Origin: Alphaproteobacteria bacterium
Lineage (GTDB): Bacteria; Pseudomonadota; Alphaproteobacteria; UBA828
Assembly (NCBI GenBank): GCA_965242855.1
Contig: OZ251509.1
Span: 337,648-401,647 of the forward strand
Reading direction: 5' to 3'
Length of the DNA: 64,000 nucleotides
A program made the position numbers and the translations under genes. The notes below the pieces were generated by a model. It had not been told where the DNA came from and did not search any database. It worked only from the letters and a program-made list of their open reading frames with translations. This document shows positions 40,862-60,693 of the stretch, one piece after another (the stretch's first letter is position 1; each line of letters opens with the position of its first letter).

Positions 40862-41851
40862 TCAACCGGCGGGATCGAGGACGCGGTCCGGCGGGGCGTG
40901 CCCGTCGGCGAAGGTCTGGATGTTGATGAGGACCTTCTCGCCCATGTCGAGGCGCCCTTCGATGGTGGCGGAGCCGATGTGGGGCAGGGCCACTACGTTG
41001 TCCAGCGTGAGCAGCTTCGGCGTGACCAGGGGCTCGTTCTCGTACACGTCCAGCCCGGCGCCGGCGATGCGGGCGGCTTCGAGCAGGCGCACCAGGGCGG
41101 CCTCGTCGATGGCGTGGCCGCGCGAGGTGTTGATCACGTAGGCCTGCGGACGCAGCAGGGAGAGTCGCCGGGCCGAGAGCAGGTGATAGGTCGCCGGCGT
41201 GCTCGGGCAGTGGATCGAGACGAAATCCATATGCGCCAGCATCTGGTCCAGGCTCTGCCACCAGGTCGCCTCGAGCGCGGCCTCGGTCTCCTCGTCCAGG
41301 CGGTTGCGGTTGTGGTAGTGGATGGAGAGGCCGAAGCCGCGGGCGCGACGGGCGACGGCCTGGCCGATCCGCCCCATGCCGACGATGCCGAGCCGCTTAC
41401 CCCAGATACGATGGCCCAGCATCGTGGTCGGCGCCCAGCCCCGCCAGTCGCCGCCGCGCAGCAGCCGCTCCCCCTCCGAGAGCCGGCGCGGCACCGCGAG
41501 GATGAGGGCCATGGTCATGTCCGCCGTGTCCTCCGTGAGGACGCCCGGCGTGTTGGTCACCAGGATGCCGCGCGCCCGCGCCGCCGCGAGGTCGATGTGG
41601 TCGACGCCCGTACCGAAGCTCGCGATCAGCTTGAGAGCGGAGCCGGCGCGTTCGAGGAGGGCGCCGTCGATGGCGTCCGTCACCGTCGGCACCAGGACGT
41701 CGGCCTCTCCCGCCGCACGCGCCAGGGCCTCGCGGTCGAGCGGGCGGTCGTCTTCGTTGAGCCGCGTGTCGAAGAGCTCCATCATGCGCGCCTCGATCTC
41801 CCGAGGGAGACGGCGCGTCACGATCACCCTGAGCCTTCTGCCCGGCGTCAT
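40862..41851 (-). CDS. D-isomer-specific 2-hydroxyacid dehydrogenase (glyoxylate/hydroxypyruvate reductase-like)
   Basis: NAD-binding 'LGIVGMGRIGQAVARRA' and catalytic 'INTSRG...VALPHIGSAT'. Confidence 0.8.
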   Translation of the reverse strand: MTPGRRLRVIVTRRLPREIEARMMELFDTRLNEDDRPLDREALARAAGEADVLVPTVTDAIDGALLERAGSALKLIASFGTGVDHIDLAAARARGILVTNTPGVLTEDTADMTMALILAVPRRLSEGERLLRGGDWRGWAPTTMLGHRIWGKRLGIVGMGRIGQAVARRARGFGLSIHYHNRNRLDEETEAALEATWWQSLDQMLAHMDFVSIHCPSTPATYHLLSARRLSLLRPQAYVINTSRGHAIDEAALVRLLEAARIAGAGLDVYENEPLVTPKLLTLDNVVALPHIGSATIEGRLDMGEKVLINIQTFADGHAPPDRVLDPAG

Positions 41852-41947
41852 CGCCCCTCCGACCGCGGCCGGCCGGTTGTTTAGCAAACGCCCCGCGGCG
41901 ACTCAATTGACCGGCCCGGCGCCGAAACCCTGTATGATCGCGGCCCC

Positions 41948-46435: not shown

Positions 46436-47272
46436 CTACGCTTCGGGCTCCATGACGAAGTCGTAATCGACGCGGAGGCCGTCGTCCGCCGGCGCGTAGT
46501 GGACGACCAGGGAGTCCTTGACGCCGAACACGGCGTCGGATTCGAGATAGGGGTCGTCGTCGGTGAAGAGCTGGGTCACGAGGGTCCGGTAGCCCGTGGC
46601 CGACACCTTGAAATGGATGTGGGCGGGACGCCAGTTGTGGCGGCCGGCGGCCTTCAGCATGGCGCCCACCGGGCCGTCGCCGGGGATGGTGTAGCTCACC
46701 GGCTTGCGGGTGCGGAAGGAATAGCGCCCGTCCGCGCCGGTCTCGATCCGACCGCACAGGTTGAACTCGGGCTGGCCCGGGTCCATCGCCGCGTACTCGG
46801 CGTTGGGCGCGGTCTGCCAGACGTCGAGGGTGGCGCCCGCGATCGGCGCCCCGTCCAGGGCGGTCACCCGGCCGGAGACCAGCACGCGCGCGCCCTCCGC
46901 CGCCCCGTCCGCCAAGTCGGCACCGTTCGCGCGGGCAGGTGCACCCTCGCGGTAGAACGGCCCGAGGACGCTGCTTTCCGTGGCGCCGGCGGGCTTCCGG
47001 TTGTTGATCGCGTCGATCAGCATGGTGGCGCCCAGCGTGTCGGAGAGAAGGATGAATTCCTGCCGCCTGTCGTCGCATTTGCGGCCGGTCTCGGTGAGGA
47101 AGCGGATGGCGGCGCGCCATTCCGGCTCCGACGGCTCGATCTCGCGGATGAAGGCATGGAGATGGCGGGTCAGGGCGCACAGGACCTCCCGAGTCCGATC
47201 CTGTGCCCCTTCCTCCAAGCGCTTGAGCGCCGCCCGGGTGATCGCGTCTTCGGGATTCGCCGTGTTCGTCAT
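46436..47272 (-). CDS. intradiol ring-cleavage dioxygenase (hydroxyquinol/catechol 1,2-dioxygenase family)
   Basis: 'LGPFY', 'GRVTALDGAPIAGATLDVWQ' and 'RPAHIHFKV' (His ligand) are typical of intradiol dioxygenases. Confidence 0.8.
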   Translation of the reverse strand: MTNTANPEDAITRAALKRLEEGAQDRTREVLCALTRHLHAFIREIEPSEPEWRAAIRFLTETGRKCDDRRQEFILLSDTLGATMLIDAINNRKPAGATESSVLGPFYREGAPARANGADLADGAAEGARVLVSGRVTALDGAPIAGATLDVWQTAPNAEYAAMDPGQPEFNLCGRIETGADGRYSFRTRKPVSYTIPGDGPVGAMLKAAGRHNWRPAHIHFKVSATGYRTLVTQLFTDDDPYLESDAVFGVKDSLVVHYAPADDGLRVDYDFVMEPEA

Positions 47273-47305
47273 CGCGACCCGCCCCCATCGGCGGGCGAAA
47301 GGCGC

Positions 47306-48415
47306 CTAATTCCCGATCCGGCGTCCGGTGGCAGGATCGAAGAAGAGGAGCGTCTCGGTGTCGAGATGCAGCTCGACCCGGTCGCCGTCGTTGAACTCCT
47401 GCACGCCCGCCACCGTCAGGGCGAGATTGATGCCCGAGAGATCGACACCGACCGTCGTGTGCATCCCGAGGGGCTCGAGGTCGTTCACGACCCCCGTGCG
47501 GTGTGATTCGCCCGAGGTCGAGGGGACGATCCGCACGTGCTCGGGCCGCAACCCGACTTCGACCTCGCTCACATGCGCCGGCAAGCCGTGTTCCATGCGC
47601 TTCGGCAAAGGGAGAATCATGGAACCGATGGCGAGGCGGACCTCGCCGTTTTCGCGCGAGAGCCGCCCGGGGACGATGTTGATCTTCGGGTTGCCGACGA
47701 AGCGCGCGACCTCCCGGTCGGCGGGTTCGTCGTAGAGCTCCTGCGCCTTGGCGACTTGGCGCACCTCGCCTTCGAGTAACACGCAGACGGTATCGGCGAG
47801 GGCCAGCGCCTCGGTGTAGTCCGGGGTCGCGAAGACGAAGGTCCGCCCGAGATCGCGTTGCAGGCGCTTCAGCTCCGTCCTGAGCTCGATTCGCAGCATG
47901 AAGTCGAGGCTGGAGAGCGGCTCGTCCAGGAGGAAGAAACGCGGCTCCCGCACCATGGCGCGGCCGAGGGCGACGCGCTGCCGTTCGCCGCCGCTGAAGG
48001 TCGCCGGCAGACGATCGAGGATGTGGCCGATCTTCAGCAGCTTCGCCATCTCGTCGACCCGCTTCTTGATCTCGGCCTTCGGCATCCTGGCGAGTCTGAG
48101 CGGGGAGGCGACGTTCTCGTAACCCGTCTTGTTGGGATAGAGTGCGAGATTGTCGAAGATCATCGCGATGTCGCGCTGGTTGGGCTGCAACCGGGTGAAG
48201 TTCTGGCCTTCGACCCAGACCTCGCCGGAAGACGGCGCCTCGAGGCCGGCGACGATCCGCAAGGTGGTGGTCTTGCCCGCCCCGGCGGGGCCGAGCAGCA
48301 CGATCAGCGAGCCGCGCGGGACCTCCAGGCTCAGTTCCTTGACTGCCTGGGTGGCGCCGAAATTCTTGGAGACGGAGCGAAGCTCCAGGAGAGGATCGGC
48401 CATGGCCCGGCTCAT
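47306..48415 (-). CDS. ABC transporter ATP-binding protein (MalK/UgpC-like, with TOBE domain)
   Basis: 'GPAGAGKTT', 'FSGGERQRVALGRAM' and 'FLLDEPLSSLD'. Confidence 0.85.
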   Translation of the reverse strand: MSRAMADPLLELRSVSKNFGATQAVKELSLEVPRGSLIVLLGPAGAGKTTTLRIVAGLEAPSSGEVWVEGQNFTRLQPNQRDIAMIFDNLALYPNKTGYENVASPLRLARMPKAEIKKRVDEMAKLLKIGHILDRLPATFSGGERQRVALGRAMVREPRFFLLDEPLSSLDFMLRIELRTELKRLQRDLGRTFVFATPDYTEALALADTVCVLLEGEVRQVAKAQELYDEPADREVARFVGNPKINIVPGRLSRENGEVRLAIGSMILPLPKRMEHGLPAHVSEVEVGLRPEHVRIVPSTSGESHRTGVVNDLEPLGMHTTVGVDLSGINLALTVAGVQEFNDGDRVELHLDTETLLFFDPATGRRIGN

Positions 48416-49506
48416 GCCTTCAAGCGGACGCCCGATTCGGCGTCGAACAACGCCAGCACCTCGGCGTCGGGCAGGATGGTGACCTCGCCGCCTTCGCGCG
48501 CCTGCGTGCCCGTTTCCACGATCATCTTCATGTCGGTCGCGCCCACCCGTGCCGTCAACACGGTTTCCGGCCCCTGCGGCTCGACCGCGATAACGGCGGC
48601 GGCGAAGCCGTCCGGGTTCCCGGCCTCGACCACGGCCATCGTCTCCGGGCGCATACCGACGACCACATCGGCGCCTTCGTCCAGGCCGGCAGCACCGCCC
48701 GCCGGCAGCGGAATCGTGGCACCGTCCTGCGGCGCCACACCGGGGCGGCCGCCGTCAAGGCTCAACCGCCCGCGCACGAAGTTCATCGGCGGGTTGCCGA
48801 GGAAGCTCCCGACGAAGGTGTTGTCGGGGTAGTGGTAGACATTGTGGGCGGTGTCGTACTGCTTGAGCTGGCCGAAATCCATGACCGCGATCCGATGGGC
48901 GAGGGACAGCGCCTCGATCTGATCGTGGGTCACGTAGATGATGGTCTGACCGGTCTCGGCCTGGATGCGCCGGAGCTCGCGGCGCATCTGGTTGCGCATC
49001 TCCGCCTCGAGATTGCTGAGCGGCTCGTCGAGGAGGAGAATGTCCGGGTTGGTCACCAGGGTTCGCCCGATGGCGACGCGCTGGAGCTCGCTCGCGCCGA
49101 GCTCCATGGGCTTGTTGTCCAGCTGGCCGGCGAGATTGAGGAACTCGGCGACTTTGGCGACCTCGCGGTCGATGTCGGGCCGGCTCATGCCACGGACGCG
49201 GAGCCCGTATTCCAGATTGTGCCGGACGTTCATGTGGGTGAAGACCGCGTAATCCTGGAACACCAGCCCGACGTTCCGCTGACCCGGCGGAGTCTCGAGG
49301 ACCGACCGTCCGTCGATCAGGATGTCGCCCGAGGTCGGCGATTCGAGACCCACAATCATGTTGAGGGTGGTGGACTTGCCGCAGCCGGAGGGCCCGAGCA
49401 AGGCCATGGTCTCGCCCTCCTCGACGCCGAGGGACACATCGTCCACGGCGATGAGGTCTCCGAACTCCTTACGGAGCTTGACCAGTTCGAGTTTGATCGT
49501 CGCCAT
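48412..49506 (-). CDS. ABC transporter ATP-binding protein (second MalK-like ATPase); start 'MATIKLEL' at 49506
   Basis: 'GPSGCGKST', 'LGASELQRVAIGRTL' and 'LLLDEPLSNLE'. The upstream 141 aa of ORF 48412..49929 are artefact. Confidence 0.85.
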   Translation of the reverse strand: MATIKLELVKLRKEFGDLIAVDDVSLGVEEGETMALLGPSGCGKSTTLNMIVGLESPTSGDILIDGRSVLETPPGQRNVGLVFQDYAVFTHMNVRHNLEYGLRVRGMSRPDIDREVAKVAEFLNLAGQLDNKPMELGASELQRVAIGRTLVTNPDILLLDEPLSNLEAEMRNQMRRELRRIQAETGQTIIYVTHDQIEALSLAHRIAVMDFGQLKQYDTAHNVYHYPDNTFVGSFLGNPPMNFVRGRLSLDGGRPGVAPQDGATIPLPAGGAAGLDEGADVVVGMRPETMAVVEAGNPDGFAAAVIAVEPQGPETVLTARVGATDMKMIVETGTQAREGGEVTILPDAEVLALFDAESGVRLKA

Positions 49507-49511
49507 GGCCA

Positions 49512-50459
49512 CTAGCGCTTGATCGCGCCGAGGGTGAGGCCGCGCACCAGATGCCGCTGGATGAAGAAGCCGACGATGACCAGCGGAATGATGGAGACGA
49601 CCGCAAGCGCCGCCTGGATACCGTATTGCTGCCCCGAGGTGGCGCTGAAGTATTTCGACAGCTTGACCGGGATGGTCTCGACGTTGGTGTAGGTAAGCAC
49701 CAGGGCGAACAGGAACTCGCTCCAGTTCAGGATGAAGATGAAGAGCGCCGTGGCGATCAGGCCGCCCTTGATCAGAGGCACGGTGACCTTGAGGTGGGCC
49801 TCCCACCGAGACATGCCGTCCATCATCGCCGCCTCCTCGATCTCCTGGGGCAGCTCGTCGATGAAGCTCTTCAGCATCCAGGTGGAGAAGGGGACGGTCA
49901 CCGCCGCATAGGCGAGGATCAGGCCCCAATAGGTGTCCGTCGCCTCGATTCCGGGTGCGCTAAACATCACGACGAACGGAATCGCGATGGCGATGGGCGG
50001 GAACATCCGCCCCGATAATATGAAGAAGGGCGTGACGTTGCCGCCGAATCGGTATCGCGCGATGGCGACCGCAGCCATAAAGCCGACCACGATGGAGAGG
50101 ATGGTCGAGAACACCGAGATGATGACCGAGCCCCGGATCGACTGCCATGCCGACTTGGTCAGGAAGTCGGCAACGGCGCCGCTCACCGACGATGACTGCG
50201 TCGCGCGCTGCTGCGTGACCTCACCTTCCTCGGTGTACTGGCCGAGGCCGCCGCGCTCCTCGAGCAGGAGGGACGGCCACAGGATCACGAGATAGTTGGT
50301 GACGGTTCCGTTCTCCGACACCCACACTGGCGGCGTCGTAACCCACTCGTTGGACGGCTTGAAGGAGGTCGAAACCATCCAGAACAGCGGGAACACCGCG
50401 AAAAGGAGCCCGAAGGCAAGCCCTATCGCGCTGCCTGGGCCGAATTTCCTCGCGGACAT
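49512..50459 (-). CDS. carbohydrate ABC transporter permease (MalG-like)
   Basis: EAA-type loop 'EEAAMMDGMSRWEAHLKVTVPL'. Six TM helices. Confidence 0.8.
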   Translation of the reverse strand: MSARKFGPGSAIGLAFGLLFAVFPLFWMVSTSFKPSNEWVTTPPVWVSENGTVTNYLVILWPSLLLEERGGLGQYTEEGEVTQQRATQSSSVSGAVADFLTKSAWQSIRGSVIISVFSTILSIVVGFMAAVAIARYRFGGNVTPFFILSGRMFPPIAIAIPFVVMFSAPGIEATDTYWGLILAYAAVTVPFSTWMLKSFIDELPQEIEEAAMMDGMSRWEAHLKVTVPLIKGGLIATALFIFILNWSEFLFALVLTYTNVETIPVKLSKYFSATSGQQYGIQAALAVVSIIPLVIVGFFIQRHLVRGLTLGAIKR

Positions 50460-51446
50460 CTAGCGCTTCTCCAGCAACTGGTAGCGGATCGGACGCAGCA
50501 TCATGTTGATCATCACCACGGTGATCACCAGCACGATAAAGCCCGCCGAGCCCGCGTAGGCGAGCCGGAAATCGAGGAACCCGAGCTTGTACAGGTAGAG
50601 GCTCATGGTCTCCGTCGCCGTGCCCGGGCCGCCTCGGGTGAGGATGTATATCTCGTCGAAGAGCTTGATCACCTCCATGCCGCGGATTACGAAGGCGATG
50701 ATGATCACGCCGCGCATGTTCGGCATGATGACGGTCCAGAATATCCGCCAGTTGCTGGCGCCGAGCACGGTGGCGGCGCGCACCGGGTTCTCCGGCACCG
50801 CGTTGAGGCCGGAGAGCAGGATCAGAAAGAACAGCGGCGTCCAGTGCCAGACCTCGGTGATGACCACGGCGAAGAAGGCCAGTAGGCCGTTGTTGAGCCA
50901 CTGCAAGTCGGCCCCAGCGGAGCTGCCGCCGATCCAACCGAGCACCTGATTGACCGGTCCGGTGTACTGGAACAGCATGAACCACGTGTAGCCAACCACC
51001 ACCGGCATGATCATCATCGGGGTGAGCAGCGCGGTGAACCAGATACGCTTGCCCCAGAACGTCTTCAGGAAAATCGTCGCCAGCCCGAGCCCGATGACGA
51101 ATTCGAGACAGAGGCTCAAAACCGATATGGCGAGCGTCCGGCCCAGCGCCTCGAGGAAGCGCGGCTCGTCCGTCACCAGATAATAGTAATTGAGGCCAAG
51201 TTCGGTATCGCCGGAGAATATCGTGTCCACGGCCTGCCAGATGGAGGTTCCATAGGTCGGCTGCCATTCGGTCAGCGCGACGAGAAACTCCAGACCAAAC
51301 GGGAAAATCAGCATTGTTATCAAAAGAAGTTGAACAGGCGTGATGAAGAGCGCGCCGATGTAGCGCTTGTCGTTGGGGTCGAACAAGCGTGCCCGCGCCT
51401 GCAGTGCAGGCGCGGGCACGCCATCGTTTGCGGTCTTCGCAACCAC
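50460..51446 (-). CDS. carbohydrate ABC transporter permease (MalF/UgpA-like)
   Basis: GTG start. Permease loop 'AATVLGASNWRIFWTVIMP'. Confidence 0.8.
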   Translation of the reverse strand: MVAKTANDGVPAPALQARARLFDPNDKRYIGALFITPVQLLLITMLIFPFGLEFLVALTEWQPTYGTSIWQAVDTIFSGDTELGLNYYYLVTDEPRFLEALGRTLAISVLSLCLEFVIGLGLATIFLKTFWGKRIWFTALLTPMMIMPVVVGYTWFMLFQYTGPVNQVLGWIGGSSAGADLQWLNNGLLAFFAVVITEVWHWTPLFFLILLSGLNAVPENPVRAATVLGASNWRIFWTVIMPNMRGVIIIAFVIRGMEVIKLFDEIYILTRGGPGTATETMSLYLYKLGFLDFRLAYAGSAGFIVLVITVVMINMMLRPIRYQLLEKR

Positions 51447-51481
51447 GGTATCGGTAATCCGTCCGTGCAGCTACAGCCGGA

Positions 51482-53095
51482 CTACAGGGTCCAATTCTGG
51501 ACGCCAACGAGCTTCTGGAGAGGCTCCGGATACATCCTGGCGAGACCGTGCCAGCTCTCCTTCTGCTCTGCCTTGCCCAGGCGCCGCGTGATGCGGTTCT
51601 GCTCCTTGGCCGCGTCCTCCATCGCCTCTTCCGGCGACTTGTTACCATTGTAGGCCGCAGTCAGATTGACGTCGAGTGCGTTGAGGTACTCGGCCGCACC
51701 GCGCAGCTGAATCTCCGGCACCGCGTCCACGATCGCCTCAGCGTGGGTCGCCAGGAAGTCGCCCGGATAGGAGGCGAAGAACTCCGCCGACGGGGCGAAG
51801 AAGTGGTTGTCGCGCCACGGATCGAAGTAGCCGCCCTCGTTCGGGATCGACCGCATCGACATGGTCGGCCCGGTGATCCACTGCGAGTAGCAGTAGGCGG
51901 CCTCCTGGATCGGCGAGTAGTTGCTCACCACGAAGTCCCAGGCAAAGGCATGGATGCACGAGCGGATGAGCTCACCACCGTGCATGGTGCCCGGCACCTT
52001 CGAGACGGCGGTCTGCGAAGGTTCGCCATCCTCGCCCTTGGCAGCAATGATTGACTGCGAGCCCGCCGCGTCGTTGCTGTAGCGCCAGAGCGACGGCCAC
52101 CCGAACTCACAGAAACCACGGCCCTGCGCATAGTACTGCGCGTAGTTCTCGGTGAAGCCGTAGGTGAACTGCTCGGCCGGCATGATGTCCTGCAGCGCGA
52201 TCAGCTCCTTGACGGTCTCGATGCTCTCCGGCGAGCCGGCCATCGAGTTCATGTCCTCGTCGAAGTAGAAGTGACCCTTCGACTGAACGCGCGTCATCCA
52301 GTGGAATTTGTTCCAGAACGGCGAGCGATACTCGAGGGCACCGTAGAAGTTGTTGTCCGGGTCGTGCATCTCAGCGCAGAGGGCGTCGTACTCGGTCCAG
52401 GTATGGACCAGCTCCCGCTTCGACTTCGGCGCCAAGCCCTTCTCGCCGAGCTTGTCCTTGCGGTAGCTCAGATGCCACCAGTCGCCGTCGCAATAGAGCC
52501 CGTAGGTCTTGCCCTTGTACTTCTGCCCGAAGTCGGACACCGGGAACTGGAGCTTGTTGGGTCCTGAGTAGACCTCGGGATCGTACTTGTCCATGAGGTC
52601 GTCAAGGGGCCGCGCCACGCCCGACTCGGCAAGATCCGCAAGGCTCAGCGGCGCCGGGATCATGATGTCGTAGCGGCCGGTCTTCGCCACCGCTTCCTGC
52701 ATCGCCTTCTGGTGAGTCTCGGTGACCGGCACCTCGATCAATTCGACATCGAAGCCGGTCAGGCCCTTCCACTCCTCGGTGAAGGGCGACAGGTTGCCAC
52801 CCGAGCCCGACGGATACATGACGCTGATGGTCTTCTTCGGCGCATCGGCGAAGAGCGCCTTGGCACCGCTGATGGCACGGTCCTCAGGCGTGGCGCCTTC
52901 GGCCGCCCAGGCCTGCCTCACGCCGAAGGGCGCTTGGCTCATGAGCATCTTGATCGCGCCGGCGCCGAGGCCGAGGCCGGCCATGCCCTTGATCAGGTCC
53001 CGCCGCGAGACCTTGTGGTTCTTGCGATCGAGATGCATCGACCAGAGCCGGTAAAGCTCCTTCTTGAACCGCTCCTTCTTGTCGGTATGCGACAT
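51482..53095 (-). CDS. ABC transporter extracellular solute-binding protein (family 1) with Tat-type signal
   Basis: Start 'MSHTDKK' with GGAGGGAGG RBS. Tat signal 'SRRDLIKGMAGLGLGAGAIKM'. The remainder is a large SBP fold (~537 aa). Confidence 0.75.
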   Translation of the reverse strand: MSHTDKKERFKKELYRLWSMHLDRKNHKVSRRDLIKGMAGLGLGAGAIKMLMSQAPFGVRQAWAAEGATPEDRAISGAKALFADAPKKTISVMYPSGSGGNLSPFTEEWKGLTGFDVELIEVPVTETHQKAMQEAVAKTGRYDIMIPAPLSLADLAESGVARPLDDLMDKYDPEVYSGPNKLQFPVSDFGQKYKGKTYGLYCDGDWWHLSYRKDKLGEKGLAPKSKRELVHTWTEYDALCAEMHDPDNNFYGALEYRSPFWNKFHWMTRVQSKGHFYFDEDMNSMAGSPESIETVKELIALQDIMPAEQFTYGFTENYAQYYAQGRGFCEFGWPSLWRYSNDAAGSQSIIAAKGEDGEPSQTAVSKVPGTMHGGELIRSCIHAFAWDFVVSNYSPIQEAAYCYSQWITGPTMSMRSIPNEGGYFDPWRDNHFFAPSAEFFASYPGDFLATHAEAIVDAVPEIQLRGAAEYLNALDVNLTAAYNGNKSPEEAMEDAAKEQNRITRRLGKAEQKESWHGLARMYPEPLQKLVGVQNWTL

Positions 53096-53475
53096 GCGCA
53101 ACCTCCCTCCGCTCCGGGTCGAGACCGCCCCGGCCCCGTATCCCCTCGATGTTCCACGGAAAGGCACCACGCGCGCGGTGCCGGTAGACTCTCCCTTGGC
53201 GGCGCGCACAATAGCAGCAGCGCGCCCGTCATGCAAACAGGAAATGATCGCCCGGCTCCCGACCGCCCGTCCGCGCTATACTGCGCCGCGCGCCCCGGCG
53301 CGCCGGGGGAGGCCGATGAGTGCGGGCGTAGGAAAAATCGGCGGAGTGCTGCGGGAATTGCGGAGGGCCTCTGCCCTCCCGCCGGGCGGCGCCTGCGCCC
53401 GGGAGGAGAGCGGGGAGCGGGCGGTGCCGGCCGGCCCGAGCGCCCTCGGGAATACCCGCGGCTGACGCCTCGGTC

Positions 53476-54048
53476 ATGCGCTGGATCAGGGAATACACGC
53501 TCGACAGGCCCGCGCTCTGCGACGAGCTGATCGCGGGCTTCAAAAAGACCCGGCGGCTCGGCCTCACCCGGCCGGGAACGAGCGCCAGGGGCGTGGACAA
53601 ATCGTGGAAGGATTCGGAGGACGCGAGCCTGACCTGCTTCCCCTACGAGGTCTATGCCGGGGCCGTCCGCGCCTATCGCGGCCACGTCATGGCCTGCCTC
53701 AAGGCCTATCTCGCGGCGTTCCCCATCCTCGAGGAGGCGACCGCCAAGCTCGGTTTCCTGGAGCCGCCGCAGATGCAGTACTACAAGCCCGGCGGCGCCT
53801 TCCACGGCGCGCATTACGAGAGCAGCGGCCTCCACATCGCCCACCGGGTCCTCGCCTTCCAGACCTTCCTCAACGACATCGCCCAGGGCGGCGGCACCTA
53901 TTTCCTCTTCCAGGATCACACGGTCGCGCCGGCACGGGGCAAGACGGCGATCTGGCCGGCCGGCTTCACCCACACCCACCGGGGCGAGGTCGCGCCGCGC
54001 GAGGAGAAGTACATCGTCACCGGCTGGATCAGCTTCATGAGCATATAG
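53476..54048 (+). CDS. putative 2OG-Fe(II) oxygenase-like protein
   Basis: 190 aa with possible His ligands in 'GAHYESSG' and 'GFTHTHRGE'. The assignment is tentative. Confidence 0.35.
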   Translation: MRWIREYTLDRPALCDELIAGFKKTRRLGLTRPGTSARGVDKSWKDSEDASLTCFPYEVYAGAVRAYRGHVMACLKAYLAAFPILEEATAKLGFLEPPQMQYYKPGGAFHGAHYESSGLHIAHRVLAFQTFLNDIAQGGGTYFLFQDHTVAPARGKTAIWPAGFTHTHRGEVAPREEKYIVTGWISFMSI

Positions 54049-54338
54049 GCGAACGTCCGACGGGGCGCGCCCACGTCACGATGCGTCGCCTCGTCGCCTC
54101 ATACCGGCTTCGAGGTCGCGCGCTCCGTTGTCCATGTCGGGGGCGCAGCCCGGGCCTTGCCCGGCGCTTCGGGATCGGTGGCACCCTCGTTCCGAGCGAC
54201 GACCGCGCTGGCCCGGTCTTCACGCAATACACCGCCTCCGGAGAGTGCCGGACGGGAGTCCGTCATCCGCGCGGTCCCTTGTTTCCGCCTGCGCGATCTG
54301 AAACCCTTGGCTCCGCGACGGAAGCGGCGAGGGGCGCG

Positions 54339-54983
54339 ATGGACCGCCTGTTGGATCTCGGCACGCGGATCGAGCTGGTCTCGATGGACCCGCATTTCCA
54401 CGACATCAGCCTCTCCCTGTACCGGCGCGCGGGCACCGGCGGCGCTTGCGGCTTCCTCCCGCACAGCTACAGCGGCAGGGAAGGGGTCGAGGCGCGGCTT
54501 GCCTTCGTGGCGCGGGCGATGACCGCGCTCGGCGGGATGGGGCCGGCGCCCGGACAGCCGGGGCGGCTCGCCTTCCCGTGCGGCGCCGAGCACCGCGCGG
54601 CGGCGAAGCGGCTGTTCCTCGAAGCCTGCAAGCGGGCACCGGGTTCCGCACCCGCGGCGCAACCGATGCGCATCCACGACCGGAAGAACGACCTCGCTAT
54701 CGCCGCCGCGGGCCTGGGCGACGGGCGCTACCGGATCGCGGCCGAAGGCGGCGGCGCCAAGGCGGCCCGGCGCGCCGACGGCGTCGCCCGCGGCCTCGTC
54801 AGGCTCGCCGAAATGGAGCCGGGAGAGGCGGCGGAGGCGCGCTTCCCCTGCGGCCACGCGCACGACGCGCTGATCGGCCTGCTGCTCGGCCGGGCGCTCA
54901 ACGTCCGCACCGCCATGCGCGAGGCGGAGGCCGTCGCCGCCCGCGGCGTCCTCGCCGCGCCGAGCGCACAACAAGGGGCCTGA
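54339..54983 (+). CDS. hypothetical protein (214 aa) immediately upstream (19 bp) of the corrinoid methyltransferase cluster
   Basis: In-frame ATG at 54339 within ORF 53604..54983, with a purine-rich RBS. No recognisable domain. Confidence 0.4.
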   Translation: MDRLLDLGTRIELVSMDPHFHDISLSLYRRAGTGGACGFLPHSYSGREGVEARLAFVARAMTALGGMGPAPGQPGRLAFPCGAEHRAAAKRLFLEACKRAPGSAPAAQPMRIHDRKNDLAIAAAGLGDGRYRIAAEGGGAKAARRADGVARGLVRLAEMEPGEAAEARFPCGHAHDALIGLLLGRALNVRTAMREAEAVAARGVLAAPSAQQGA

Positions 54984-55001
54984 AGCCCGGGAGCGGAGAC
55001 G

Positions 55002-56045
55002 ATGACGGCAATGCCCTCCATGACCAGCCGCGCGCGCGTGCTCGCGGCGCTCCGGCGCGAGGCGGTGGACCGGACGCCGGTCTGCAACCCGACATCGGTG
55101 GCGACCGTCGAACTGATGGACCTGGTGGACGCGCCCTTCCCGCTCGCCAACCGGGATGCGGCGCTGATGGCCCGCCTCGCCGCCACCGGCCATACCGAGC
55201 TCGGGTTCGACAGCATCATGCCGGTATTCTCGATCATCCAGGAATCCTCGGCCCTCGGCTGCAAGATGCAGTGGGAGCAGAAGGACAATTGGCCGACCGT
55301 GCGCATGCGCGAGCCGATCTGGCGGGACGTGGACGACATCCGCATCCCCAACGACTTCCTCCTACATCCCGACATGCGCTGCGTGATCGAGGCGATCCGC
55401 CTCCTGCGCAGGGAATTCGGCGACGAGGTCGCGGTCATCGGCAAGACCATGGGGCCGTGGACGCTCGGCTACCACTGCTTCGGCGTCGAGCCCTTCCTCC
55501 TGATGTCGCTCGACGACCCGGGCCGGACCAAGCTCGCGCTCGATCGCATGAAGGAGGCGACCGTGCAGTTCGGCCTGGCGCAGATCGAGGCCGGCGCCGA
55601 CGCGCTGACGCTCCCCGACCACGCCACCGGCGATCTGGTGAGCGCCGATTACTACCGGCGCTACCTCAAGGACCTCCACATCGAATTCGTGGAGCGCCTG
55701 CCGGTGCCGCTCATCCTCCACATCTGCGGGCGCACCGTGGACCGCATGGGCTACATCGCCGAGACGGGGATCGCCGCCTTCCACTTCGATTCCAGGAACG
55801 AACCGGGCGAATCGATGGCGGCCATGGACGCCCGGGTGTCCCTGGTGGGCAACATCAACAACCCGGAGACGCTCTTCGCCAGGGGGCCGGAGGCGGTGCG
55901 CCGGGAGGTCTACGCGAATCTTGATGCCGGCGTGCAGGCGGTGGGCCCGGAATGCGCCATCCCCCTTCAGACCTCGGTCGAGAACCTGCGCGAGATCCCG
56001 CGGGCGGTGCGCGACTGGCACGAAGAGCATGGCCGCCCGCACTGA
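55002..56045 (+). CDS. uroporphyrinogen decarboxylase (URO-D) family methyltransferase (MtaA/MtbA-like; candidate substrate:corrinoid methyltransferase, MT1)
   Basis: 347 aa of the URO-D/MtaA family ('RTPVCNPTSVATVELMD', 'LPDHATGDLVS', 'ILHICGRT'). Confidence 0.75.
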   Translation: MTAMPSMTSRARVLAALRREAVDRTPVCNPTSVATVELMDLVDAPFPLANRDAALMARLAATGHTELGFDSIMPVFSIIQESSALGCKMQWEQKDNWPTVRMREPIWRDVDDIRIPNDFLLHPDMRCVIEAIRLLRREFGDEVAVIGKTMGPWTLGYHCFGVEPFLLMSLDDPGRTKLALDRMKEATVQFGLAQIEAGADALTLPDHATGDLVSADYYRRYLKDLHIEFVERLPVPLILHICGRTVDRMGYIAETGIAAFHFDSRNEPGESMAAMDARVSLVGNINNPETLFARGPEAVRREVYANLDAGVQAVGPECAIPLQTSVENLREIPRAVRDWHEEHGRPH

Positions 56046-56084
56046 TCGGCCATAGGATCGCCGGCTTTCACGGTCGAGTACGAC

Positions 56085-56834
56085 ATGGCCGAGCTGTCCG
56101 ACATCGCCAACGCGCGCATCCGCGCCGAGATCGAGGAGTTCCTCGAACGGCCGGACGAGATCGAGCGGAACGTCGCGCTCTTCGCGCGAATCCGCCCGCC
56201 GATGCAGGACATCGCGGCGGCGCTGATCGAGGGCGACAACGAGACCGTCGACGCGCTGACGGCGCGGGCGCTGGAGGAGGGCACCGACGCCCTCGAGATC
56301 ATGGACGACGCGCTGATCGCCGGGATGGGCATCGTCGGGATCAAGTTCCGCGAGAATTTCATCTTCGTGCCCGAGGTGCTGGCCTGCGCCCGGGCCATGA
56401 AGGCGGGAATGGCCCATATCGAGCCGATCCTCTCGGCCTCGGGCGTCGACCCGACGGGGACCGTGATCATGGGCACGGTGAAGGGCGACCTGCACGACAT
56501 CGGGAAGAACCTCTGCATCATGATGCTCTCCGGCGCGGGCTTCGAAGTGATCGACCTCGGCGTGGACACCTCGGAGGACGAGTTCATCGCGGCGCTCGAG
56601 GAGCACCGGGCGCCGATCCTGGGCATGTCGGCCCTGCTCACCACGACCATGCCGAACATGGGCAGGACGATCGAGGCGCTGATCGACGCCGACCTCCGCG
56701 ACGACGTGATGATCATGGTCGGCGGCGCGCCGGTGACCCAGGAGTTCGCCGACGACATGGGTGCGGACGGCTACGGCAAGGACGCGCTCTCCTGCGTCGC
56801 CCTCGCGAAGCGGCTGATGGAAGAGCGCGGGTAG
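56085..56834 (+). CDS. cobalamin-binding corrinoid protein (B12-binding domain, MtaC/MtbC-like)
   Basis: His-on B12 motif 'GDLHDIGKNL' and Rossmann-like 'MMLSGAGFEVIDLG'. The N-terminal cap is a helical domain. Confidence 0.85.
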   Translation: MAELSDIANARIRAEIEEFLERPDEIERNVALFARIRPPMQDIAAALIEGDNETVDALTARALEEGTDALEIMDDALIAGMGIVGIKFRENFIFVPEVLACARAMKAGMAHIEPILSASGVDPTGTVIMGTVKGDLHDIGKNLCIMMLSGAGFEVIDLGVDTSEDEFIAALEEHRAPILGMSALLTTTMPNMGRTIEALIDADLRDDVMIMVGGAPVTQEFADDMGADGYGKDALSCVALAKRLMEERG

Positions 56835-56841
56835 GCCGCCG

Positions 56842-58827
56842 TTGCGGAAAATCAGCCGGAGCGCCTACCAGGAGCGGCTGGACCGCCTCACCGAAATCTT
56901 CTCCGGCATCGTCGATCACGCCGACGCGCAGGCGCGGAATCGCTGCCCCTACCGCGACCGCGCCGACCGTTGCACCGCCGCCTTCGCCTGCCGCAACCGA
57001 ATCCCGCCGGAGGCCGACGGGGAGCGCCCGTCCTGCGGCCACGACGGCGCCTTCGATTACCGCCTGGCCTGGGAGACCGATCCGGGCGCCCGCGACCGGG
57101 CGAAGGCGCGGCTTGAACGAATCCGCCGGAGCGCGGCGGCGCGTCGCGGCGGCGCGGAACCGGCGGCCGGCCCGGGGACGATCGCCCACGGCGCCGCGAC
57201 GCGCCCGCTCGTCGCCGGCCTGACGCTGTTCGATCACGCCGACGCGCTCGCGGCCTGGGTGCCGACCTCCTGCCACCGCAACGGCCGCTGCCACGAATGC
57301 GTGGTCGAGGTGACCCGCGGCGAAGACGCGCTCGCCGCGCGGACGGAGGCGGAGAGCTTCCTGCGCGGACGCTACCGGCTGGCCTGCCAGGCGGTGGTCG
57401 CGCGCGCCGACCGGGACGTGGCGTTCGCGCCGCTGCACCGCCGCCCGCGCATCCTCGCCGCGCCCGACCGGGACGCGCCGCAGGCGTTCGATCCGCTCGT
57501 CACGCGGCGGGGGGAGGAGGTGCTCTACGACGGCGCGCCGATCGACCGCTATCGCGGGCGCATCCTGGGGCTCGCCGTCGATCTCGGCACGACGACGGTG
57601 GTGCTGGATTTCGTCGACCTCGAAAGCGGGCGCAGCGTCCACGGCGCCGCCTTCGAAAACCCGCAGGCCTTCGGCGGCAGCGACGTCATGCACCGCATCT
57701 CCTACGACCGGGAGGACGCCACCGGCGCGCTCCAGAAGGCCGCCGCCTCGGCGATCAACCGCGCGAGCGCCGAGGCCTGCGCGCGTCTCGGCGTCGGGCG
57801 CAACGCGCTCTATGAAATCGTGGTCGCGGGCAACCCGACCATGCGCGACGTCCTCTTCAAACTCGACGTCCAGGGGATCGGCCAGAGGCCGTACAAATCC
57901 CTGGTGGAGAAGGCGTTTCTGGCCGGCGAACGGGCCGATACCGCGCTCCGCGCGCAGGCCCGGCGGTTGGGCCTGCGGACCAACCCGCAGGCCCGCGCCT
58001 ACGGCCTGCCCCTGATCGCGAGCCATGTCGGCGGGGACACGGCGGCCGGCCTCGCGGCGCTGGAGGAGGCGTTCGCCGGCGCGGAGACGGCGATGCTCGT
58101 GGACATGGGCACCAACACCGAGGTCGTCCTCAAGCACCGGGGGCGGATGCTCGCCGCCTCCTGCCCCGCCGGGCCGGCCTTCGAGGGCGGGTTGGTGCGC
58201 TATGGAATGCCGGCCTGCGACGGCGCCATCGAAGCGGTGCGGCTCGGCGCCGACGGCGCCGCCGCGTGGGAAACCATCGGCGGCGGCGCGCCGGCGGGGC
58301 TCTGCGGCTCCGGCCTGATCGACCTGCTGGCGGAGTTGCGGTGCACCGGGCAGCTCACGGCCAAGGGTGCGTTCACGGCGGACCGCAAGCGGTTCGAGAT
58401 CGCGGTCGTGCCGGAGCACGGCATCACCTTCTCCAGGGAGGACGCGAGCAATCTCGGCCAGGCCAAGGCCGCGAACTATTGCGGCCAGTACATCGTCATG
58501 CGGGCCCTGGGCGTCGATCCGGCGTCGGTCGAGCGGCTCTATCTGGCCGGCGGCTTCGCCACCTATGTGAACGTCCGCAACGCGATCGCCATCGGCCTGC
58601 TGGCGCCGGTGCCCGAGGAGCGGGTGGTCAAGGTCGGCAACGCGGCGGCGCGGGGCGCGCGCGCGATCCTGCTCTCCGGCAGCCGGCGCCGGGCGCTCGA
58701 ACGCCGCGTCCAGGCCATCGCGCATGTCGAGCTCGAGACCACGCCGGATTTCTTCGACCTGTTCGTGGATGGCTGCCAGTTCAAGCCCATGCCGTCCGTC
58801 CTCGCGCCGCAGGGAGAACCCGCATGA
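56842..58827 (+). CDS. ASKHA-domain corrinoid activation/regeneration protein (RACo/RamA-like) with N-terminal [2Fe-2S] ferredoxin domain
   Basis: 2Fe-2S motif 'CHRNGRCHECVV'. ASKHA/DUF4445 core 'LGLAVDLGTTTVV' and 'MLVDMGTNTEVVL'. Confidence 0.75.
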   Translation: MRKISRSAYQERLDRLTEIFSGIVDHADAQARNRCPYRDRADRCTAAFACRNRIPPEADGERPSCGHDGAFDYRLAWETDPGARDRAKARLERIRRSAAARRGGAEPAAGPGTIAHGAATRPLVAGLTLFDHADALAAWVPTSCHRNGRCHECVVEVTRGEDALAARTEAESFLRGRYRLACQAVVARADRDVAFAPLHRRPRILAAPDRDAPQAFDPLVTRRGEEVLYDGAPIDRYRGRILGLAVDLGTTTVVLDFVDLESGRSVHGAAFENPQAFGGSDVMHRISYDREDATGALQKAAASAINRASAEACARLGVGRNALYEIVVAGNPTMRDVLFKLDVQGIGQRPYKSLVEKAFLAGERADTALRAQARRLGLRTNPQARAYGLPLIASHVGGDTAAGLAALEEAFAGAETAMLVDMGTNTEVVLKHRGRMLAASCPAGPAFEGGLVRYGMPACDGAIEAVRLGADGAAAWETIGGGAPAGLCGSGLIDLLAELRCTGQLTAKGAFTADRKRFEIAVVPEHGITFSREDASNLGQAKAANYCGQYIVMRALGVDPASVERLYLAGGFATYVNVRNAIAIGLLAPVPEERVVKVGNAAARGARAILLSGSRRRALERRVQAIAHVELETTPDFFDLFVDGCQFKPMPSVLAPQGEPA

Positions 58828-59855
58828 CCGCGACCGCCGCGCCGCCGTTCGTCGCCATCGGCGAGAACATCCACGCGACCCGCGTCGTGCTCCGCAAGGG
58901 CAAGCGCGTCGCCGTGCGCGACGGCGCGGAGGCCGTCCTCTACCGCGCGGCCGACGGCGCGGAGCGCGCCCTGCCCGTCCCCGAGGCGGCGAAGAAGACC
59001 AAGGATTACGAGGAGGGACGGGTCAAGCACGTCCAGATCGCGATCGAGACGGCGATGGAAACCGGCGACCCGGGCGAGGGCCGGCGCTACATCGAGGCCC
59101 TGGTCCGCCATCAGGAGCGGGCGGGCGCGGCCTTCCTTGATCTCAACGTGGACGAGATGTCGCCGAAGCTCGAAGTGCAGACCGCCGCCATGGCCTGGCT
59201 CGCCCGCACCGTCCAGGGCATGACGGCGCTGCCGCTCTCGATCGATTCCTCCAGCATCGACGTGATCCGCGCCGGGCTCGAGGCGCTGGCGCCCGGCGGC
59301 GCGCGGGCGATGCTCAACTCCGCCTCGCTGGAGCGCCTGGATGCGCTCGCCCTCGCGCGCACCCACGACTGCCGCGTGGTGGTGACGGCGGCCGGCGAGA
59401 AGGGAATGCCCGACGGCGCGGAGGCGCGCGTCGCCAACGCTTCGCGCATGATCGAGGCCGCAGGCGGCGCAGGCTTCGCGGAGGGCGACGTCTACGTCGA
59501 TCCGCTGGTCTTCCCGGTTTCCGTGGACGGTCGCTACGGCCGCCACTGCCTGGACGCGATCCGCGCCCTGCGCGCCGCGTTCGGCGCCGCGATCCACATC
59601 ACCGGCGGCATGAGCAACGTTTCGTTCGGCCTGCCGGCCCGCAGGCTCCTGAACGAGGCCTTCGCCCTGCTCGCGGTCGAGGCCGGCGCCGACGGCGGCA
59701 TCATGGACCCGGTCGCGAGCCCGCCGGCCGCCCTCTTCGCCCGCGACCGCGCCGCCCCGCGCCACCGCCTGGCCGAGGACGTCATCCTGGGCCGCGACGA
59801 ACACTGCATGGCCTGGATCCGCGCTTGGCGAAAGGGCGAACTTGCCGTAGGGTGA
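58824..59855 (+). CDS. pterin-binding methyltransferase (MtrH/AcsE/CmuB-like methylcorrinoid:tetrahydrofolate methyltransferase, MT2)
   Basis: ATG overlaps the upstream stop. The pterin-binding TIM-barrel family is indicated by 'FVAIGENIH', 'LDLNVDE' and 'ITGGMSNVSFGLP'. Confidence 0.7.
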   Translation: MTATAAPPFVAIGENIHATRVVLRKGKRVAVRDGAEAVLYRAADGAERALPVPEAAKKTKDYEEGRVKHVQIAIETAMETGDPGEGRRYIEALVRHQERAGAAFLDLNVDEMSPKLEVQTAAMAWLARTVQGMTALPLSIDSSSIDVIRAGLEALAPGGARAMLNSASLERLDALALARTHDCRVVVTAAGEKGMPDGAEARVANASRMIEAAGGAGFAEGDVYVDPLVFPVSVDGRYGRHCLDAIRALRAAFGAAIHITGGMSNVSFGLPARRLLNEAFALLAVEAGADGGIMDPVASPPAALFARDRAAPRHRLAEDVILGRDEHCMAWIRAWRKGELAVG

Positions 59856-59889: not shown

Positions 59890-60693
59890 ATGAGAGAGAA
59901 GCTGCATCCGGACATCGTCCGCATTTTTGAGGAGGAAATCCTCGCTCCGGTCGGAGCAGCGGAAGCAGACGGACCACATGACACCTTGACGGGTTTTTTA
60001 CCGATGAGGGGAGATTTATACGAGCCCGGTGGATTGATGGTTGTCGGACGAGCGACGCACGATTGGAGAATTCGCACCAAGTGGAATTATCTTGGCAGCG
60101 ACGAGTCACGCAAGGAGTACACTCAGGAGGTCGTCAGGGCAAACAGCGATAGCGAAGGAAAATGCTCCATGATATGGGTTAAGGAGCTATGGGGAAACAC
60201 CGAGTGTAACAAGAAGTACGGATCGAAGTACAACACCAAAAGCTCTGCTTTTTGGAGAGTTATTCAGAAAGTGACCACATACATACCCATAACTGAAGAC
60301 GAGTCGAACTTCTCTTCTTGGCTGGTGTACTCGAATCTGTACAAACTCTCTCCAATCAGCGGTAATCCCCGTGGGAAGCTTCGCCATCTTCAACTGAGAG
60401 GTTGCAAATCCTCATTCAAGCGCGAAATTGATGTTTTTCGCCCAGGTCGCCTACTTCTTCTCACCGGATTGCGGGGGTCGCAGTGGGCCGCCAAACCATT
60501 TCTCGAGAAGCTTTGCATTGATAGCAAAGACGATGGTGAGCTGGAACACGTCGAGCTCAAGGGGCGATTGCATTATCCGGAGGGAAACTCGGCGAGCCTC
60601 GTCGTCGCCAAGCATCCACGGGGGAAGAAAGAGGATATCTGGGTCGACCAGGTGGTGAAAGCTTTCAGCATGACCGGTGCCCCGACGAGATAA
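59890..60693 (+). CDS. hypothetical protein, low-GC single-gene insertion (267 aa)
   Basis: GC is ~48%. RBS 'gaggcaactgagaATG'. No recognisable domain. It sits between the MtrH-like gene and the LLM monooxygenase. Confidence 0.5.
   Translation: MREKLHPDIVRIFEEEILAPVGAAEADGPHDTLTGFLPMRGDLYEPGGLMVVGRATHDWRIRTKWNYLGSDESRKEYTQEVVRANSDSEGKCSMIWVKELWGNTECNKKYGSKYNTKSSAFWRVIQKVTTYIPITEDESNFSSWLVYSNLYKLSPISGNPRGKLRHLQLRGCKSSFKREIDVFRPGRLLLLTGLRGSQWAAKPFLEKLCIDSKDDGELEHVELKGRLHYPEGNSASLVVAKHPRGKKEDIWVDQVVKAFSMTGAPTR

Follow-up and report, generated by a model that had tools for sequence, protein, structure and literature searches.

The DNA analysed here is a window of 64,000 nucleotides from an alphaproteobacterial genome (Alphaproteobacteria bacterium, GTDB lineage UBA828; assembly GCA_965242855.1, contig OZ251509.1, positions 337,648 to 401,647 of the forward strand), and coordinates are those of the window unless a genome position is given. 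Between 54339 and 59855 it carries a compact and self-contained corrinoid methyl-transfer system of five genes: a 214-aa protein named fam1, a zinc methyltransferase (MT1), a corrinoid protein (CP), a RACo-type activase fused to a four-Cys module, and a folate-side methyltransferase (MT2). The operon is predicted from its sequence to move methyl groups between tetrahydrofolate (H4folate) and a small substrate by way of protein-bound cobalamin, and the flow is, on balance, probably a methyl harvest from the substrate. The system is real and widespread, and it is probably not a methoxy-aromatic demethylase. An initial annotation had described four components on the + strand, and all four were recovered in their places by Pfam, NCBIfam and PDB searches, which yielded a complete corrinoid set (URO-D-type methyltransferase, His-on corrinoid protein, 2Fe-2S/ASKHA activase and folate-side methyltransferase). 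The count of four was too low, however, since the hypothetical protein reported as merely preceding them is the first gene of the operon. Three points are new: the form of the system is minimal and independent of MetH, selenium and thiol-product genes are missing from the host, and the four-Cys module is fused. The features are as follows.

53476-54048, + strand: 2-oxoglutarate (2OG) oxygenase (2OG-FeII_Oxy_3, Pfam E 5e-7), outside the operon
54278-54303, + strand: conserved upstream element CTTGTTTCC-N7-CGATCTGAAA, 26 nt, located 36 nt 5' of fam1
54339-54983, + strand: fam1, 214-aa partner of MT1, first gene of the operon
55002-56045, + strand: MT1, predicted MtaA-family (URO-D superfamily) zinc methyltransferase (Pfam URO-D, E 4e-63)
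56085-56834, + strand: CP, His-on corrinoid protein (Pfam B12-binding_2 and B12-binding)
56842-58827, + strand: RACo/RamA-type ATP-dependent reductive activase (Pfam Fer2, Raco_middle and RACo_C_ter)
58824-59855, + strand: MT2, predicted pterin-binding MeTr/MetH-type methyl-corrinoid:tetrahydrofolate methyltransferase (Pfam Pterin_bind, PF00809)

Six co-directional genes thus occupy 53476-59855 of the + strand, as delimited by the listing of open reading frames (ORFs), frame-specific third-position GC and Pfam, and a third-position GC of 0.85-1.0 in the expected frames supports every one of them, from the 2OG oxygenase through MT2. The true start of MT2 is at 58824, where its ATG overlaps the stop codon of RACo (ATGA), and the intergenic gaps from 54339 onwards are 18, 39, 7 and -4 nt. 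The 2OG oxygenase is separated from fam1 by 290 nt, and this gap contains the conserved element. Because of the tight gaps on one side and the long gap holding the element on the other, the operon was considered to comprise five genes starting at 54339, to the exclusion of the oxygenase. The exact pattern of the element is found 5' of fam1 in 10 related alphaproteobacterial loci, and it occurs once in the window against 0 matches expected from shuffled sequences; it is probably a promoter or operator marking the start of the operon. Promoter and terminator scans gave signals at or below chance, and a search for riboswitches and other RNAs found no Rfam family over threshold anywhere in the window.

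MT1 is best classed, from its alignments, as a full-length URO-D barrel with an intact His-x-Cys...Cys zinc triad of the type found in the soluble methylcobamide:coenzyme M methyltransferases (SCMTs) of methanogens. Its best match in the PDB is the MtaA of M. mazei (4ay7, E 3.6e-51, full length, about 31% identity); HemE structures reach 2e-13 at best, and no O-demethylase-type structure is among its PDB matches. The predicted zinc ligands His240 and Cys242 (in LHICGR) and Cys318 (in GPECAI) align with the zinc positions of MtaA (LHICG and PGCGI), and both motifs are kept in at least 74 of 80 homologues. Scores against NCBIfam models fall slightly under the cut-offs of PRK06252 (238.5 for 244) and TIGR01463, mtaA_cmuA (234.9 for 235.4), and well under those of the MtaA (215 for 400) and MtbA (189 for 600) equivalogs. 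A reading of MT1 as uroporphyrinogen decarboxylase, which had been named as the way in which the methyltransferase assignment could fail, is contradicted by its score on the hemE model (62 bits for a cut-off of 303) and by the presence of a separate true HemE in the genome (G000:C1:3442279-3443298; 375.7 bits, against 213.6 for MT1 in the same search). Compared with the Cmu proteins of pCMU01, MT1 is 24% identical to the N-terminal domain of CmuA (E 2e-6). According to the rule proposed by Kountz and Balskus, corrinoid methyltransferases of the UroD superfamily with a His-Cys-Cys zinc sphere act on sulfur or selenium (PMC10418091), and by analogy the sphere of MT1 points to a soft-atom substrate.

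The corrinoid protein is composed of a helical cap and a Rossmann domain, with a DxHxxG motif at D135-L-H137-D-I-G140 that is kept as DLHDIG in 57 of 57 homologues. It matches 1y80 (E 5e-59) and 7xcn in the PDB, has corrin_MtgC_2 as best NCBIfam model (204.8 bits, cut-off 370), and shares 32% identity with the C-terminal domain of CmuA. In the activase (3zyy, E 6e-65), the 2Fe-2S ferredoxin, middle and ASKHA domains are preceded by an N-terminal four-Cys module (about 56842-57090). The four-Cys module covers the first ~80 residues (RCPY..CTA..FxC..CGxD) and is conserved in 55 loci; in two loci of other phyla (L022 and L077) it is encoded as a separate small ORF.

For MT2, the initial annotation as MtrH-like was replaced: the protein appears from its profile and structure matches to be of the MeTr/MetH pterin-binding family (PF00809) and not of the MtrH family, with only E 0.002 over 99 residues against the MtrH-type CmuB. 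Its best PDB match is a methyltransferase of D. hafniense (4o0q, E 1.8e-30), followed by the MeTr structures 2yci and 2e7f and by the folate domain of MetH, and it scores 191 bits on PRK07535. Although 4o0q is titled "DHPS", it was solved with H4folate and CH3-H4folate bound (see its use in PMC13222342). MT2 could also be distinguished from dihydropteroate synthase, the confusion against which the first reading had warned, since a separate FolP lies at genome position 2511357-2512079 and scores 268 bits on Pterin_bind, compared with 80 for MT2.

The first gene, fam1, was characterised in a comparison set of 80 related loci (loci of MT1 homologues), in which all ORFs were clustered. A fam1 homologue lies directly 5' of MT1 in 77 of these 80 loci, and in two of the other three (L018 and L039) it is there too, in another frame. 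The 77 clustered copies all share one aligned start column; the start codon is ATG in 76 of them and TTG in one (L034). The protein is an internal duplication with two FPCGxxH motifs, in which C81, H85, C171 and H175 are invariant; it is conserved at 43-57% identity. No match was found in Pfam, NCBIfam or the ESM Atlas. The AlphaFold2 model is a tandem alpha/beta structure (pLDDT 89, pTM 0.83), for which Foldseek returned nothing from the PDB at E <= 0.001; the best VIA-align Z was 6.5, for a urea carboxylase domain, along with BMC, HIT and ACT-like sandwiches, a range that was rated uninformative. As modelled, fam1 thus folds confidently and yet matches no known fold. A profile search of 1.84 billion representatives gave 281 clusters, all of about 210 aa or fragments thereof, and no natural fusion of fam1 with MT1 was found among the longer proteins. 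One 345-aa representative (P0206), in which a partial fam1 is followed by the start of a URO-D domain, was rejected as a fusion, as it looks like a frameshifted gene call.

In 23 loci of Poribacteria where CP and RACo sit elsewhere, fam1 stays with MT1, and therefore it belongs to MT1 and not to the activation machinery. It is the most constant partner of MT1 and the most conserved accessory of the system; we infer for it a role as substrate-side subunit, possibly a metal-binding one. A literature search found no description of a fam1/MT1 module.

The host assembly, one 3.56-Mb contig rated 100% complete, holds exactly one copy each of RACo, stand-alone corrinoid protein, MtaA-like gene and fam1. 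It has no MttB (PF06253), in agreement with the initial statement that this is not an MttB-type system, and no DUF1638. A full-length MetH, encoded by an open frame of 1273 aa, adjoins MetF; PF02574 occurs only inside this MetH, so that there is no stand-alone homocysteine methyltransferase, and the genome has neither an MTHFR-MetV fusion nor a PF13769 gene. Given the separate MetH, the lack of a homocysteine methyltransferase or MttB and the single copy of each part, the only net reaction possible is one between the substrate of MT1 and folate. No selenophosphate synthetase (SelD) was detected above cut-off in the genome, and hence no known selenium use is attributed to the host. The aerobic host assumed at the outset is borne out by a haem-copper oxidase (COX1), and the suggested check of cobalamin genes gave CbiC, a marker of corrin-ring synthesis, and one cobalamin riboswitch, which lies elsewhere in the genome. 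A second, divergent MTHFR-like gene of 263 aa was noted far from metF-metH (G000:C1:874104-874781; L103:8087-8878, - strand), between a polyketide-cyclase-like gene and recR/dnaX, with Fmt near; it was considered as a possible catabolic hint and set aside, as RecR, DnaX and Fmt as neighbours provide none.

Relatives of MT1 were found in metagenome-assembled genomes (MAGs) of Alphaproteobacteria, Poribacteria, Latescibacterota, Gemmatimonadota, Acidobacteriota, Acidimicrobiia and Opitutales, several with bin names from sponge microbiomes and some from soil, one of them assigned to Gemmatimonas phototrophica. Towards other phyla, the median identity is 80% for both MT1 and CP, dropping to 61% in RACo and 55% in MT2; about 53 loci keep the gene order MT1, CP, RACo. 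The MT1 tree unites the 19 alphaproteobacterial sequences in a single supported group (100/94). The sequences of Gemmatimonadota, Acidobacteriota and Latescibacterota are mixed with one another, suggesting transfer between these three phyla. The presence of such a system had been called unusual for this kind of organism. This is right for the class, since fam1 was found in only 8 of 401 sampled genomes (including all three other sampled members of the host's family); it is not right for aerobes in general, among which corrinoid methyl hubs have by now been described (PMC12478193).

The genes that often accompany the core in other phyla encode an MTHFR-MetV-like fusion, a PF13769 protein and a PF02574 homocysteine S-methyltransferase; a divergent GntR/FCD regulator is also found there, and sometimes a PhyH dioxygenase. 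Several observations on copy number and arrangement were made in the same set. Poribacteria (loci L028, L033, L035, L038, L043, L044 and others) have two MT1 lineages, one in a full cluster including CP and RACo (12 loci) and one in the bare fam1-MT1 pair (23 loci); the bare pairs lie in housekeeping surroundings and form a clade of their own (99/95 support). Two complete copies of the cluster were found within single MAGs (L004 and L007; L075 and L080); on one Acidobacteriota contig, the two are about 60 kb apart and their MT1 proteins are identical. In two Poribacteria loci (L015:11804-12259 and L019:11953-12765), a PhyH-family 2OG dioxygenase and a 152-aa protein of no family lie between RACo and the MTHFR gene. 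That a PhyH dioxygenase in Poribacteria and an unrelated 2OG-FeII_Oxy_3 gene in the window both stand beside the same core may be a coincidence.

In the proposed mechanism, RACo would bring oxidised Co(II) back to Co(I) at the expense of ATP, with electrons from its own Fe-S domains. MT1, with fam1 as obligatory partner, would exchange the methyl group between a zinc-bound heteroatom of the substrate and cobalt, and MT2 would exchange it between cobalt and N5 of H4folate. Run as a methyl harvest, the sequence would go from substrate to cobalamin to CH3-H4folate, thereby feeding the separate MetH/MetF and the one-carbon pool, and a substrate with a soft leaving atom, such as a methyl halide or methyl-sulfur compound, would be expected in place of a methoxy-aromatic. 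Fixed roles of MT1 as donor side and of MT2 as acceptor side had been annotated initially; these were not upheld, as flow through the system could go either way.

We consider methyl harvest the somewhat more probable of the two directions. To our knowledge, all characterised bacterial corrinoid systems other than MetH are catabolic demethylases (PMC13222342, PMC12478193), and GntR/FCD regulators, of the type seen beside the cluster in other phyla, usually control catabolic operons. Several points weigh against this direction and against the substrates proposed for it. The nearest characterised relatives of MT1 (MtaA and MtbA) run in the opposite sense, from methyl-cobalamin to a thiol, and the transfer from a simple thioether to folate is estimated, from the Mtr and methionine synthase reactions, to be uphill by roughly 30 kJ/mol. 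Neither methanethiol oxidase nor a CDO-type thiol dioxygenase was found in the host or in eight congeners, which would leave thiol products unhandled, and the operon has no dedicated MTHFR, FolD or PurU in the host genome. The gene neighbourhood was tried as a substrate clue and abandoned, as the recurrent flanking families (Pfam, 80 loci) are only housekeeping or variable ones: GFO/IDH oxidoreductases, HAD hydrolase, cytochrome bc, GlgC, IMPDH, Mur ligase, LipA and GidA. As regards methyl halides, CmuA is only 24% identical to MT1, and the halomethane enzyme CdmB has no zinc (PMC13222342).

The reverse flow is the alternative that survives best, and we regard it as possible, with a clearly lower probability than the harvest. 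MT2 would load CP from CH3-H4folate, and MT1/fam1 would then methylate a zinc-bound thiol or sulfide, as MtaA does with coenzyme M. This would yield a methylthio compound, such as methanethiol if sulfide is the acceptor or methylmercaptopropionate (MMPA) if it is 3-mercaptopropionate. It is consistent with the closeness of MT1 to the methylcobamide:coenzyme M methyltransferases, whose His-Cys-Cys zinc site it keeps, with the CH3-folate-consuming setting of the clusters that lie beside MTHFR and homocysteine methyltransferase genes in other phyla, and with the failure to find the two thiol-product catabolic genes sought in the host genus. Transfer from folate to a thiol is also thermodynamically favoured. 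On the other side, methionine synthase is the only known biosynthetic corrinoid system of bacteria, such methylations are normally performed by S-adenosylmethionine (SAM) enzymes, there is no evident need for a methylthio product in bulk, and the catabolic habit of GntR/FCD regulators applies here as well. The MtgD of Ruegeria works in both directions (PMC12478193), a further point for the reverse flow.

That the operon is an aerobic counterpart of the O-demethylases, in which MT1 would demethylate a methoxylated aromatic and neighbouring ring-cleavage genes would process the product, is in our estimation improbable. Its four-part architecture equals that of the Odm, Vdm and Mtv systems, the best solved relative of MT2 is the D. 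hafniense protein 4o0q, and genes for an intradiol dioxygenase and a SnoaL protein are situated some 7 kb upstream of the operon, from which a link with aromatic catabolism had initially been drawn. These genes do exist; the link to the substrate does not hold, since they are on the opposite strand, beyond an ABC importer of lower GC, and none of the SnoaL, intradiol dioxygenase, ABC importer and 2OG oxygenase genes adjoins the cluster in any of the 80 related loci, including a relative with a 97% identical MT1. As they are not syntenic even in this closest relative, the upstream genes give no clue to the substrate, and the 2OG oxygenase, although correctly positioned in the initial annotation, cannot serve as context for the same reason. 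The assignment of MT1 to an O-demethylase type was not upheld either: both Cys zinc ligands are present in MT1, whereas O-demethylases have carboxylates or no ligand at these positions, and MtaA-type (SCMT) enzymes share only about 17% identity with OdmB and VdmB (PMC10418091).

A function in the handling of methyl-selenium or methyl-arsenic compounds, whether demethylation of dimethylselenide or methylselenol (as proposed for the mlp/sdm clusters) or arsenic methylation or demethylation for acquisition or detoxification, has a similarly small probability. The His-Cys-Cys zinc site would suit selenium as well as sulfur, and ClMlp2 methylates selenide in vitro (PMC10418091); against this stand the host genome without a selenophosphate synthetase above cut-off, a window without arsenic or selenium genes, and an organisation that differs from that of the type 1 mlp clusters by its one MtaA-like gene, its folate methyltransferase and its aerobic host. 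Least probable of all is a split methionine synthase or its remnant, with CP, RACo and MT2 serving methionine synthesis and MT1 as an alternative homocysteine-binding module: all parts of a split MetH are present in the versions of other phyla, and for Phaeobacter and Ruegeria such an enzyme, together with a RamA-like activase, is established (PMC12478193), but the operon is not one in this host, where a complete MetH adjoins MetF and the stand-alone homocysteine methyltransferase, MTHFR-MetV and PF13769 genes are missing while MT1/fam1 is retained, and the fuller clusters elsewhere carry the PF02574 homocysteine methyltransferase in addition to MT1.

Returning to methyl harvest, a more specific and rather speculative reading is that fam1 and MT1 make up a new two-protein methyl-substrate:corrinoid methyltransferase, which would pass the methyl groups of methyl-sulfur compounds or methyl halides to folate in aerobes of at least eight phyla (sponge symbionts, soil and freshwater organisms). 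A cobalamin-dependent aerobic "dimethyl sulfide (DMS) methyltransferase" was proposed in 1993 and is still unidentified (PMC6548844), and the fam1/MT1 family is therefore a candidate worth testing, nothing more; it could be this enzyme, or alternatively a cmuA-independent methyl halide sink.

Among characterised systems, the closest in setting is the aerobic MtgBCDE/MetF2/RamA hub, which was shown by genetics in Ruegeria pomeroyi to perform glycine betaine demethylation and methionine synthesis (PMC12478193). Like the operon, the hub, known from R. pomeroyi and Phaeobacter inhibens, occurs in an aerobic host and combines a stand-alone corrinoid protein with a bidirectional methyltransferase of pterin-binding type and a RamA/RACo activase, although MT2 and RACo match the MtgD/RamA type at family level only. 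The clusters of other phyla share its layout, including an MTHFR paralogue and a stand-alone homocysteine methyltransferase. In the present operon, by contrast, an MtaA/URO-D zinc enzyme and fam1 take the place of the MttB-family MtgB, the host has neither DUF1638 nor an MtgE-like gene, CP remains under the MtgC cut-offs, and methionine is made by the separate full-length MetH.

The SCMTs of methanogens (MtaA and MtbA, and the thioether enzymes MtsA and MtpA) have the same H-x-C...C zinc triad as MT1, whose identity of about 31% to M. mazei MtaA is as high as that of the SCMTs among themselves. The differences are the scores below the MtaA and MtbA equivalog cut-offs, the bacterial and aerobic host, and the pairing with a folate methyltransferase as well as fam1; nothing points to a use of coenzyme M. 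The anaerobic O-demethylases (OdmABCD, VdmABCD, MtvABC and MtoABCD) have the same four roles, including a RACE-type activase, and the genes of CP, MT2 and activase are encoded together here too; the best solved relative of MT2 comes from such an organism. The operon differs from them in its MT1, which lies in the other (SCMT) branch of the UroD superfamily and carries a zinc site of sulfur type, in its extra partner protein and in its aerobic host.

The chloromethane systems, CmuAB of aerobes and CdmBCA of anaerobes (PMC13222342), likewise pass a methyl group through a corrinoid to H4folate, and CmuA keeps the H-x-C...C motif. CmuA is, however, a fused methyltransferase-corrinoid protein, the two being separate genes here, and CmuB is of MtrH type, compared with PF00809 for MT2; the zinc-free CdmB lies in the O-demethylase branch (PMC13222342). 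Finally, the type 1 mlp clusters (PMC10418091) resemble the operon by their MtaA-like His-Cys-Cys enzymes, corrinoid protein, bacterial-type activase and suspected sulfur or selenium substrate. They contain two or three Mlp paralogues and no folate methyltransferase and occur in obligate anaerobes only, whereas the system described here has one MtaA-like gene, fam1 and a folate methyltransferase and occurs in aerobes.

In the surroundings of the operon, the region 46436-53236 (- strand) contains the intradiol dioxygenase and, after it, an ABC importer of MalK type with two ATPases, two permeases and a family-1 solute-binding protein; the GC is 0.62-0.65, below that of the surroundings. It looks like an inserted block, as none of it lies beside the cluster in any relative. 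Synteny with the closest relative restarts only downstream, at an LLM monooxygenase and UvrB. Directly after MT2, a 267-aa ORF of low GC (about 50%) lies at 59890-60693; it has no Pfam or NCBIfam match, and L001, the closest relative, is the only one in which it is conserved (83%). Just inside its annotated start there is a terminator-like hairpin (59909-59921), so that either this start is wrong or the hairpin terminates the corrinoid operon. In 15 loci of several phyla, a D-2-hydroxyacid dehydrogenase gene lies within a few kb of the cluster (among them, about 7070 in L025 and L040, about 13050 in L014, and about 4000-4400 in L033, L044, L046 and L063), and its product is about 35% identical to that of 40862-41902 in the window. 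This recurrence may be due to chance, the family being a common one, or may reflect a link to serine or glyoxylate metabolism.

For a long time, corrinoid methyl-transfer systems were regarded as tools of anaerobes, until 2025, when glycine betaine breakdown and methionine synthesis in oxic seawater were shown to depend on one of them (PMC12478193). The operon described here has the same chassis with a different substrate module, formed by the MtaA-type zinc enzyme and fam1. With about 80% identity across phyla, the MT1/fam1 module ranks, in these uncultured lineages, among the most conserved enzymes whose substrate is unknown. The host genome is a useful test case, as it has the minimal five-gene form, separate from methionine synthase, and the options for the substrate are narrowed by the lack in this host of selenium use and of known methanethiol and mercaptopropionate enzymes. 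Identification of the substrate would add a B12-dependent route to the methyl cycles (sulfur, halogen or other) of sea and soil, and would also account for part of the B12 demand of sponge symbionts.

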